Shown here in pieces: positions 202 to 63,403 of a stretch of 64,000 nt of DNA. The stretch lies in assembly GCA_965178125.1 (NCBI GenBank), contig OZ237740.1, forward strand, positions 186,001 to 250,000. The letters run 5' to 3'. Position numbers and translations under genes: made by a program. The DNA is from Bilabrum cf. latius (taxonomy: Eukaryota). Numbering within the stretch: position 1 is the stretch's first letter; every line of letters starts with the position of its first letter. The notes below the pieces were generated by a model that had not been told where the DNA came from, ran no database searches, and worked only from the letters and a program-made list of their open reading frames with translations.

Positions 202-3200
202 TCAAGTGCCATCGCCAGCTGATCTGAAAGCCCGCCAAAAGAAGCCTCCCTTCACCGCGAAGAGCAGAGAAGTCACGGCAAGAGCAGCAGATGCCAGTAC
301 GGGAGCGCCAGCAATGAACACCCTCTGCTCCCAGAGCAAGCCCTGCGGCACAAGATGCAGCTGGCCGAGCTGCCCGCCGTGCCCGCCCACCCTCCCAAGC
401 GTGCACGCGTCCCACCCGCACGCACCGGCGGTGCAGCCGATGGCAAGGCCCACAGCGACCAGGATGCTCAGATCCTCGAATAGGCGGAACCACAAGGACA
501 GTCTGGCCACGCCGCCCGCCACTTTGACCACCCATTCCCTAGGTCGCACGCACGATGCGTGCAGCCCGCTCCACCCGATCGCCTGTGCTTCCCAGGCCAA
601 GAGCGCGCCCAGCAGCTGGGCCGTCACGCTGCACATGTCTCGGCGGAGGCTGTATAAACTGGCGTGTCCAATGCTACTGGTTGCGATGCTTGGCGGGCTA
701 GGCTGCGCGGGATACGGCAGTCGTGCCTAGTCAGAAACGGGCCGGTTTTCGTCTTCTTGGCCGACCTCACGAACAGTCTGCTGGGCCGTTCGGTGCGACC
801 CCCACGTGCTGCTTGGGCGCAGGACAGTGTGCGGCCCTGCCGCCGTTTTGTAGGCCTGGAGCGTGCTCTTGGGCCGAGTGGAGCTGCCGGTATCACTGAT
901 GGTCTCGCTCTTCATCTTGCCTGTCGTCCTGAGCGAATGCACAGCATTCGCGCCGGTGCTGTTCCCCGAGCGGCCTGTCCCACGCGCAGCAGGGCCCAAA
1001 CCACTGGATGTTTCAAATTCTGTCTCCTGGAACGTAACTCCTTGGCCATGAACGGCAGCAGACGGGGCCTCCGCTCCTTTCTCGAAGCTTGACTGCACCC
1101 GTGAAGCCGTCCCGTCGCTGCTGTCCCCGCGAGAATCGGGAATGGACTCGAAGCGCGGAGTCTCCTTGTTGTCTTGGCGGTCAAACACGGATCCGAAGAG
1201 CATATCGCCAAAGCCAGAGCCGTCGGCACCATCGACCTAACCCGGCAAAGACTGCATAGAAGGCACCTTGATCTGCTCCTGCTCATGGCAATCGGGAGGA
1301 GGCACGTCCACGTCGCCGCTCTCGGGGAACGACTGCATGGAAGGCACTCGAATCAGCTCCTAGTGCTGACCCGGTGCGGATGCTTGTCCATCTGGTGCGT
1401 TCGGTACTTGGGTCCCTGCTGCATCGCATGATTGCTCCTCCTTCTCGCTCACCTCCTCCACGACCCCAAGGCTGCCGCCAAAATCGAAGGTCTGCCCGCC
1501 CAAGCCGCGCGATGACGGACTGCCAGAGTGTGGCAGCCCCGCTGCCGCCCTGCACCACATCTTCTGCACTCCCATTGGACTCACAGTCCCTGAGTGAATG
1601 CTGGATGGGGTGCTCGGCAAGGCCAGAGCCGCCTCCCTCGGCTCCTCCTCGGACCCTTTGGAGGCGCGAGCAAGCCTGGCCAAGTTGTTGCGCGGGGAAC
1701 TCAAGTCAGCGGCGGCGGCAGTGGCAGCTGCCGGTGGATCGAGCGCAGTGCCTGCAAAATGAGACGTACTTTCAGCGGTGTTCTCTGGCAGCGGCTTCGA
1801 CTCTGCCCCGAGGGAGTGGTTTGGGCTGACGTTGCCCCAGTAGCTGGAATCCATGGATGCTGCAGCTAGAAGCACAGAAGCGCCACCGCTGCCACCTGTT
1901 ACCCCCACTGCTGCGCGACCACCTCGACCGGCTCCTAGGCCAATGACAGGGCCTCCTGCGATGCCTTTGGAGCGACTTTCTGCATTTGTGATCCGGCTCG
2001 TGCAAAAGGTGACTAAAGCCATGCGGGCCGCGACTGCACCGACCAGAAAAACGCATGCCACAAGCCCCGCGAGCTCAAGGCGGGATGAAAGCAGCGACAC
2101 TACCAGGGTAAAATACGTTAGCTGCCTAACCATTGCAAAAAAGAATACAGGAACGGGATTGCCGAGACCTTCGCTGCTGGCGGTCATGGCCCTTGTTTCC
2201 TCTTGGGTGCTGCTGGAGGCATGGTGCCACAGGCAGCCGTCGAATGGTCTAGTGGATGCACTGCCTGAAGACTCGCCATCTGCGTCATCCGCACCTGCCG
2301 CAAGCAAGCCGACCGCAAGCTCAGCGTCACCGTTGCCCTTATGCAGCAGAAACAGGCTGCTTGCCACACGGGGCTGCACGCAGAACACCAGAAAGGCACA
2401 AACGCTCGCACATGCACCAATGGCCGCCACGACCGCCCACAGAGAAGGAGATTCGAGAAGGTTCCCCATGCCTCCACCGCATGCTACAGCGTGGGCCCCG
2501 CGTCCACCAGAGAGGCAGGGGAGCTCAATAGTGACATTCACGCTACCAGGCACAACAGCCCCGAGCCATACACCGCCGCCTGACACAGACGGCCCCATTC
2601 TGAGGAGCTGCGCGATCCGCTGTGCGGTCGCGCCGGACGAACGTGCTCTCTACGTGCCCATCGCGGCATGGCGCGAACCGAACCGCATGACGGGCAGTTG
2701 CTTGACACTAACTCGAACGTCCAGCTCCATCATGAGCTTGGGGGGCTCAGTCGCGACCTTGTCCGGAAACGTGCAAGGCTGCTTGTCCTTTTGCACTCCG
2801 TTCTCTTGCGATGCCTCGGCTCGTGCATTGACAATGCTGACGATGAAGTCACGACGGTACCAGTCAAGGCCGGTGTGATTGCCGCTGTCTACGCCAGCCC
2901 ATTCGGCTGTAAAATCTCGCACATCATCTTCGATCTCAGTCTGGGCGTACAGGAGCTGGGCCCTTGTCGGGACCGGATACGACAGCCCGGGCGGGGTCGC
3001 AAACGTAGGATCTACCTAAATCGAGGGCAGCCAATTATTCCTGTCAAACCGCAGGGTAAACTCGACCGATGCAGTGCTGGCAGGCTCCCGCTGGGCCCAC
3101 CGAGCGTCCGTCCTCCAGCTCGACACAGCGGTTGTTGGCGCGTCAGGCAGGCACTCAACTGCTGGAATATCAGGCAAATTGTGGAAGCCCGCATCATTTG

Positions 3201-62500: not shown

Positions 62501-63403
62501 CTTCCTCGAACCCGCCGAAGACGCACCAGCGACGGCTGCCTGCGCACTCCCACCACCCGCTGACGGGCTGGAAAACGCCCCCGTCGCGCCCACCACCTCT
62601 AGGTCCCATACCTCGTTCCTGTGACTGTGCACGGTCTGCACGCACGACTACGTCTCGAGATCCCACACCTTGAGCGTGGAGTCCTTGCTCGACGTAAGCA
62701 GCCGGAGATCGTTGGCTGACCCCACACCAGAGGAAGCAGAAGGAGCAGACCCAGCCGCACGGCCCCTCTTCCTGGCTGGTGGCCCGCCTGGTGGGGCTGT
62801 GCCTCCCACCCGACCCTCCTTGGGCACGAGCTTGCAGGCAGTCACTTCATCCCTGTGGCCCATCAATCGGCAGATGCCCGCCTGTGCCGCAACATCCCAC
62901 ACGATCGCGGTGGTGTCCCGTGACGCGCTGGCGACAAACGCGCACTCCTCATCGAAGCTCAGGCACGACACGGCCTTACGATGGCCCTTGAACGTGCACT
63001 GGCGCTCACCGTTGCGCATATCAAACACCCTTACTGAGCCATCGGAGTAGCCTACCGCCGTGCTGAATCCATTCGAGCCAACAGCGACCGCACTCACCTG
63101 CGCGGGGAGGTCCAGCCCGGTCCGGTCTTCCTCGGAAGCGAGGCGCCTCAACTGCGAGCAGGTAGCAGAACACCAAACAGGACAAAATTATAAATGTTCT
63201 ACGACGCACCCCTGATAACCGTAACGCATTGGCGAGCGTGGCCTCCTCACAATTGTACCAGTCTTCACGCTCCATACGTGAGCATCCTCCAGTCCGCCGG
63301 ACACGGCGACATCTCCCGCCGGAGTAGTATCTACATTACACTGAGGTGATGTTACAATACCGAAGCTAGAGCGTTGCTTGTACCGAAGATAGGTTTTCTG
63401 CAT
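59564..63403 (-). CDS. WDR3: WD40 SSU processome protein WDR3/Utp12/Dip2; intron 63152-63250
   Basis: MQKTYLRY...FGIV, [44 protein letters not shown] and the Utp12 domain LEGALSVLPF...IGFNLA. TAGs at 62648, 60986 and 60134. Ends TAA. Confidence 0.95.

Follow-up and report, generated by a model that had tools for sequence, protein, structure and literature searches.

Introduction

In the fornicate Iotanema spirale, UAG codes for glutamine in the nuclear genome and UAA is the main stop codon (PMC5304391). Among ciliates, UAG alone has been reassigned to glutamine in Protocruzia tuzeti and in two phyllopharyngean lineages, and repeated independent origins are argued for in the same work (PMC11687900). 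Code 6, in which UAR as a whole (UAA and UAG) means glutamine, is used by many ciliates, hexamitid diplomonads, some ulvophytes, Streblomastix and Amoeboaphelidium (PMC11687900), and the giant-virus catalogue GVMAGs V2 includes 'code15' among its fitted codes (PMC13524828). Here, we analyse a stretch of 64,000 nucleotides, positions 186,001 to 250,000 of contig OZ237740.1 in GenBank assembly GCA_965178125.1 (hereafter the window, with coordinates counted from its first letter), whose genes carry TAG triplets in frame. We are highly confident that it is nuclear DNA of a heterotrophic stramenopile, sister to a Cafeteria (bicosoecid) clade on TRAP1, in which UAG means glutamine and UAA and UGA are the terminators, that is, the pattern of NCBI table 15.

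Open reading frames and genes of the window

The window has a guanine plus cytosine (GC) content of 60%. Read with the standard code, it holds four stop-to-stop open reading frames (ORFs) of at least 500 codons, the longest of 877. Taking TAG as a sense codon raises their number to 18 and the maximum to 2,203 codons, the longest frames then being of 2,203, 1,813, 1,511, 1,207, 1,199, 1,125 and 1,046 codons. The same operation on TAA changes nothing (four ORFs of at least 500 codons, maximum 877), and on TGA it gives 23 such ORFs with a maximum of 1,021. Lengthening by TGA read-through is to be expected because TGA is the commonest stop triplet in DNA of 60% GC, both strands of the window holding 1,722 TGA, 974 TAG and 437 TAA. 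TGA as a sense codon was rejected, since homology does not call for it and relatives keep the TGA ends.

In-frame TAGs number 93 among the 16,398 codons of 19 ORF pieces. These pieces amount to about 17 genes, because TRAP1 is split over several exons and the CLU and TPR frames are probably a single gene. Not one of the 19 contains an internal TAA or TGA; 15 end at TGA and four at TAA. Two of the TGA ends close an ORF and not a gene, namely the TRAP1 exon-2 frame, which enters an intron, and the CLU/TPR junction. An earlier note on this DNA, made from the letters alone, had counted about 90 in-frame TAGs, which is right once three intronic ones, located in the part covered by contigs of other sequencing runs, are subtracted from the 93. 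Its description of the DNA as intron-containing, GC-rich and eukaryotic also stands, with the GC content given above and seven spliced-out segments.

Pfam matches were obtained for 14 of the 25 window translations submitted. The families are FAD oxidoreductase, PQQ/EGF, Ion_trans, C2H2, UVB_sens, Nop53, UCH37, CLU, TPR, HSP90/TRAP1 (two pieces), COX11, an EGF-like piece and WDR3. The window genes are eukaryotic nuclear housekeeping genes; a giant-virus origin of the window was rejected on account of them and of the spliceosomal introns. The genes and ORFs are as follows.

202-5577, minus strand: ORF of unknown family, 1,791 codons; 9 TAGs, TGA end, without a Pfam family
6450-10025, plus strand: FAD-dependent oxidoreductase (PF12831, E 9.7e-63); 3 TAGs, TGA end
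10151-11929, plus strand: ORF of unknown family; 5 TAGs, 2 of them adjacent
12419-14962, minus strand: PQQ-like/EGF-repeat membrane protein; 4 TAGs
15818-22390, plus strand: two-pore-channel-like gene, 2,190 codons; 12 TAGs, one of them 7 codons before the stop, TAA end
22819-25860, plus strand: membrane protein of unknown family; 6 TAGs, TGA stop conserved in contig L001 (see below)
26258-27907, plus strand: C2H2 zinc-finger gene with 15 near-identical 29-residue fingers; 4 TAGs, one of them the last codon before TGA
28200-32714, plus strand: UVB_sens/RUS-domain gene; 12 TAGs
33798-35669, minus strand: Nop53; 4 TAGs
35800-37194, minus strand: UCH37/UCHL5; 2 TAGs, codons 46 and 71
40274-43618 and 43578-45431, plus strand: ORFs of CLU (clustered mitochondria) and TPR; together 18 TAGs, TAA end
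48098-49597, minus strand: ORF of unknown family; 1 TAG, 5 codons before TGA
50839-53428, minus strand: TRAP1 (mitochondrial HSP90), exons about 50839-52460 and 52763-53428, with an additional upstream exon past the intron 53429-53532; one exonic TAG at 53265-53267, TGA end
53791-54830, minus strand: COX11, introns 54160-54261 and 54831-54921; exonic TAGs at 54814-54816, 54706-54708 and 54598-54600
55149-55794, minus strand: exon of an EGF-like protein, intron 55795-55882; 1 exonic TAG, TAA end with a TGA one codon later
56275-58413, plus strand: ORF of unknown family; 2 TAGs, both covered by X5 contigs (see below) without difference
59564-63151, minus strand: WDR3/Utp12, 5' intron 63152-63250; 3 TAGs, TAA end

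TAG read through in conserved and spliced genes

The proposal of the earlier note that TAG is a sense codon is borne out by homology that spans TAGs and by the retention of TAGs in spliced, transcript-like contigs. Human WDR3 aligns to residues 16-1151 of the window protein in six stretches lying on both sides of TAGs, and the homology of UCH37 and TRAP1 extends across TAGs as well. A PDB search identifies the ion-transport protein at 15818-22390 as a two-pore-channel homolog, in which homology to TPC1/TPC2 resumes past TAG codons 237, 458 and 574; codon 237 sits between aligned blocks of the PDB alignment, where little is gained for the meaning of the residue. A closer comparison is provided by L001, a contig of 4,498 nucleotides and 54% GC from a Joint Genome Institute (JGI) metagenome, found via protein P0122. 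It is syntenic with the window at 23-29 kb, its UVB_sens domain being 76% identical in DNA, and it, too, has TAGs in frame (9 in 1,192 codons). The protein encoded at 22819-25860 aligns end to end with its L001 ortholog, and the conserved block at the C-terminus lies beyond six TAGs.

Contigs of four public runs (X5, X7, X8 and X9) were aligned to positions 48140-63403, the TAG-rich genes before 48140 lying outside this comparison. Those of X5 and X7, which come from two studies and bear two organism labels, show no difference from the window and are joined across seven segments that are missing from them:

about 50374-50636: spliced-out segment 1
about 52461-52762: spliced-out segment 2
53429-53532: spliced-out segment 3
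54160-54261: spliced-out segment 4
54831-54921: spliced-out segment 5
55795-55882: spliced-out segment 6
63152-63250: spliced-out segment 7

On the gene strand, five of the seven start with GTRAG and end with CAG, and the other two do likewise after a shift of one or four bases. The joined, intron-less forms at the seven GT..AG sites resemble transcript assemblies. The contigs of X8 and X9, from a relative about 8% diverged, run continuously across the same segments. Their differences within gene 48098-49597 are spaced in steps of three bases and fall on third codon positions, a pattern that shows purifying selection.

The 14 in-frame TAGs of the region 48140-63403 comprise three intronic and 11 exonic ones, and nine of the latter are present in X5/X7 pieces without difference (one in TRAP1, three in COX11, three in WDR3 and two in the ORF 56275-58413). 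The three intronic cases would suit an explanation by which TAGs are not translated at all, being products of sequencing or assembly error, RNA editing, introns or pseudogenes. Such an explanation has to face the identical TAGs in spliced contigs from two other studies, the TAGs kept in frame by the 8%-diverged relative and by L001, the third-position substitutions, and the fact that about 17 genes are affected, essential ones included. Exact, TAG-bearing spliced contigs from two runs thus rule out editing, splicing-out, sequencing error and pseudogenes, and we consider the probability of this explanation practically negligible. Two of the outcomes that the earlier note had named as speaking against its proposal bear on this. 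The first, TAGs spliced out or edited in RNA, is not borne out by the joined X5/X7 contigs, which keep nine exonic TAGs; the second, a systematic C>T error, does not agree with the same TAGs found with no differences in contigs from two other studies.

The amino acid at TAG

From comparison of sequences, TAG stands for glutamine. The most direct evidence comes from the DNA of the window and of L001, where all five TAG/CAG swaps that were checked hold: three sites have TAG in the window and CAG in L001, and two have the reverse. All five lie in well-conserved context, with adjacent codons that differ synonymously. UVB_sens codons 223 and 227, for instance, are TAG in the window and CAG in L001. 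A search for short relatives of the UVB_sens protein gave only two matches, the candidate list having been filled by low-complexity words.

Database protein fragments add to this picture. UVB_sens codon 351 is Q in P0123, a fragment that starts just past window TAG 227, and CLU codon 863 is Q in P0124 (86% identical), which terminates exactly at window TAG 957. These boundaries argue that both fragments were called with the standard code. Two other fragments, P0128 and P0131, terminate at window Q positions. Standard-code calling leaves the proteins of this organism as fragments in public databases, which we think is a warning on standard-code gene calling. Both UCH37 TAG codons, 46 and 71, are matched by Q in the nearest representative, P0134 (identity 73% over the part that aligns), and CLU codon 535 is Q in three of four more distant relatives.

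In more widely sampled families, the TRAP1 TAG column holds Q in 73 of the 96 homologs that cover the site (120 fetched), and opposite WDR3 codon 168 the human protein has Q and the yeast protein H. Within the window itself, gene 22819-25860 contains the poly-glutamine run CAA CAG TAG TAG CAG CAA, with TAG TAG at 24898-24903, and column 12 of the zinc-finger repeat is occupied by CAG five times, GAG four times, TAG three times, AAG twice and ACG once (in the first finger). A likelihood test compared which amino acid's substitution pattern, taken from the same alignments, best fits 12 filtered TAG sites. Glutamine scored -22.8, lysine -40.1 and glutamate -40.7, so that glutamine is ahead by about 17 log units. 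With 90 TAG, 476 CAG and 131 CAA in the window genes, TAG accounts for about 13% of the glutamine codons. The assignment of TAG to glutamine that the earlier note had made is thus upheld by the five swaps in DNA, the TRAP1 column and the lead of glutamine in the likelihood test.

A meaning other than glutamine (leucine, glutamate, lysine, tyrosine or serine) can call on some of the same material. CLU codon 383, discussed below, is leucine in three relatives, the zinc-finger column includes GAG and AAG, and UCH37 codon 46 is glutamate in human. Against this stand the exchange with CAG in all five cases checked in DNA, the Q of the TRAP1 site in 73 of 96 homologs, the distance of about 17 log units to lysine and glutamate, and the presence of Q at all seven window TAG sites that are spanned by relatives of at least 65% identity. 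In our opinion, another amino acid is extremely unlikely.

TAA and TGA as terminators

The conclusion that UAA and UGA behave as stops, which the earlier note had also drawn, is supported. From the CAA:CAG ratio of the window, in which CAA makes up 22% of CAR (CAA plus CAG), 24.8 internal TAAs would be expected and none is seen; this absence is partly by construction, the ORFs having been delimited by TAA and TGA, and to that extent it tells against our reading, the homology-defined spans and L001 providing a partial answer. In the homology-defined spans of L001, there are nine TAGs and no TAA, as against 7.2 expected (P 0.00075; CAA:CAG 16:20). No in-frame TAA or TGA was found in the homology-supported genes of the window. 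The internal TAA at glutamine positions that the earlier note had regarded as fatal to its proposal is accordingly absent from the window genes and from the L001 spans. The result for TAA as a stop applies only to the 64 kb of the window and to a single contig of 4.5 kb.

The ends of the genes tell the same. The codon-usage score is positive up to the TAA of the channel, TPR and WDR3 genes and negative beyond it, and it changes in the same way at TGA stops; the TAA of the EGF-like exon is followed by TGA one codon later and leaves no extension that can be scored. The TAA of WDR3 coincides with the end of human WDR3, and an X5 contig stops 50 nucleotides beyond it. Both L001 and P0006, the TRAP1 fragment of the relative, conserve TGA ends.

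Code 6 would read both UAG and UAA as glutamine and would ascribe the scarcity of TAA to GC-richness. It is true that TAA is the rarest stop triplet (437 against 974 TAG on both strands) and that ORFs delimited by TAA could conceal internal TAAs. Nevertheless, about 25 TAAs would be expected beside 90 TAGs and none occurs, L001 shows nine TAGs and no TAA, four genes end at TAA with a fall of the coding score after the three that can be scored, the WDR3 TAA lies at the human WDR3 end, and reading through TAA yields no new long ORF. We therefore hold code 6 to be very unlikely. A code without a dedicated stop, of the Condylostoma, Blastocrithidia or Amoebophrya types, was rejected as well, there being no in-frame TAA or TGA in the homology-supported genes.

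Three TAGs fall within the last eight codons of their genes, where 0.75 would be expected (Poisson P 0.04):

27905-27907: TAG of the C2H2 gene, 0 codons before the stop
48116-48118: TAG of gene 48098-49597, 5 codons before the stop
22364-22366: TAG of the channel gene, 7 codons before the stop

This excess counts against an unconditional reading of TAG as glutamine. The near-stop TAGs may once have been stops and have since come to be read through, or they may reflect residual termination at some TAGs. In the latter case UAG would be ambiguous, meaning glutamine inside genes and termination in some contexts, for example near the 3' end, similar to codes in which termination depends on context, and the three TAGs of the C2H2, 48098-49597 and channel genes would be its trace. 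No window gene requires a TAG stop, however, and old TAG stops leave the same pattern once translation continues past them as far as the following TGA or TAA; moreover, the sample is small. Thus, we rate an ambiguous UAG as quite unlikely.

Further observations against the reading and proposed mechanism

Besides the two points raised on TAA and on gene ends, several others weigh against glutamine at TAG with UAA and UGA as stops. P0134 and the CLU relatives with Q at codon 535 were compared as protein only, where Q could be a TAG translated by the gene caller. At certain TAG sites, the homologs carry other residues. CLU codon 383 is L in three relatives (32-55% identity), codon 115 is A, and codon 596 is K, T or S in distant relatives; the COX11 TAG stands opposite R in one bacterial CtaG in a PDB alignment; UCH37 codon 71 is N in human UCHL5, in a column with N 40, T 35 and Q 31 times among 150 representatives; and several TAGs of gene 22819-25860 face assorted residues in poorly aligned, low-complexity parts. 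Such scatter is to be expected because genuine glutamine sites are not strictly kept, the CAG and CAA sites of the window having Q in only 41% of the aligned homolog residues in the same alignments. With regard to the spliced contigs, no library type is recorded for X5 and X7; X5 is labelled 'probably DNA', RNA is a guess, and a listing of the runs that contain this DNA shows none of RNA. Finally, a tRNA scan found no tRNA in the window or in L001, and the eRF1 gene lies outside the window.

If UAG is glutamine and UAA is not, as we think, established cases of stop reassignment suggest how the translation machinery would accommodate it. UAG would be decoded by a tRNA-Gln with anticodon CUA, which would pair with UAG and not with UAA. 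This tRNA would probably derive from tRNA-Gln(CUG), from which it is one mutation away, and an eRF1 whose N-domain has lost or weakened its recognition of UAG would accompany the tRNA change. In Iotanema, an eRF1 substitution, T32G, is argued to underlie the UAG change (PMC5304391). By analogy, a tRNA-Gln(CUA) and a UAG-blind eRF1 are a reasonable expectation for the organism of the window.

The organism and the spread of the trait

The source is probably a bicosoecid-related stramenopile, as far as can be judged from one gene. The best named match of TRAP1 is Cafeteria roenbergensis (58% identity), followed among named sequences by ochrophyte algae. In a quick single-gene TRAP1 tree (54 rows, few of them named), the window is sister to a four-row clade containing Cafeteria, with a Shimodaira-Hasegawa-like approximate likelihood ratio test (SH-aLRT) value of 96, and the ochrophytes form a separate clade. 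No Rfam family reached the gathering score in the window or in L001, and the window has no rRNA.

Three sequence lineages carry or imply the trait: the window, the about 8%-diverged relative (P0124, P0006 and the X8/X9 contigs) and L001. As L001 belongs to a further species, with 76% nucleotide identity, and shares the change, we are dealing with a lineage trait and not with that of a single strain. L001 keeps the genes 22819-25860 and 28200-32714 as neighbours, but they are separated by about 1.9 kb instead of 3.9 kb, so that it seems to lack the zinc-finger gene.

Near-identical copies of the window DNA occur in runs X1-X7, under three organism labels from three studies, and X1-X4 contain the window in full. 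Copies under three labels would fit a small flagellate living beside other cultured or sampled organisms.

Other features of the window

The CLU ORF ends at the TGA 43616-43618 and shares 41 nucleotides (43578-43618) with the TPR ORF, which lies in another frame; TPR-like sequence runs across the frame shift. Both ORFs are probably parts of a single CLU gene in which the frame is off by one base, be it through an assembly indel, a frameshift or an unusual junction. A unit of 43 bp is repeated head to tail 61 times (45517-48139), with 100% identity and no indels, in the interval that separates the TPR gene from gene 48098-49597. The perfection of the copies suggests very recent amplification or an assembly artefact. 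The C2H2 fingers (26600-27900) are also encoded by near-identical DNA, in tandem units of 87 bp whose variation is mostly at DNA-contacting helix positions.

Downstream of TRAP1, the X5 and X7 contigs extend about 200 nucleotides beyond the TGA, skip a GT..AG segment of 263 nucleotides and reach position 49626. The region 49626-50839 is either a spliced 3' untranslated region of TRAP1 or belongs to the following same-strand gene, as a 5' exon that overlaps the TRAP1 3' end.

Comparison with known codes

UAG reassignment without UAA is rare in nuclear genomes, and the glutamine cases found are those of one fornicate and three ciliate lineages (PMC5304391, PMC11687900). A code with UAG as glutamine and UAA as a stop is therefore already known; what is new is the lineage that uses it. 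A full-text literature search, which left most subscription journals and supplementary tables uncovered, found no nuclear code change in stramenopiles, and an undescribed independent origin in this group is plausible. If a further independent origin were true, it would offer a test case for how eRF1 tells UAG from UAA, for which standard-code relatives such as Cafeteria allow direct comparison.

Iotanema resembles the window in that UAG alone has passed to glutamine and UAA has been kept, with a tRNA-Gln(CUA) and an eRF1 change being predicted (PMC5304391). It differs in belonging to Metamonada and not to Stramenopiles, and in being described from a transcriptome only (PMC5304391), whereas the window is genomic DNA with introns. 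Moreover, Iotanema has the T32G substitution in the GTS motif of eRF1 (PMC5304391), and the commoner stop of the window is TGA. The ciliates with UAG-only reassignment share with the window a UAG that means glutamine independently of UAA, the NCBI table 15 pattern (PMC11687900), but they belong to a group already known for code changes, while the lineage of the window is a stramenopile. Code 6 is likewise a change from stop to glutamine, for which the same kind of tRNA-Gln(CUA) is expected; there, however, UAA is also glutamine, and in the window TAA acts as a stop.

The genomes of the code15 giant viruses are best read with the split seen in the window, TAG as glutamine and TAA and TGA as stops. 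Theirs are viral genomes, whereas the window, which has spliceosomal introns and the housekeeping genes of a nucleus, is cellular. Cafeteria, the closest named relative on TRAP1, is itself host to a giant virus. One could go further and suppose that UAG is glutamine throughout an undescribed clade of Cafeteria relatives, represented here by no fewer than three sequence lineages, and that this clade is the missing cellular host of the TAG = Gln giant viruses, or a source of the translation machinery, which we consider an unlikely extension of the present results. By analogy of code, a stramenopile lineage with UAG as glutamine would be a candidate host type for giant viruses that use the same code.

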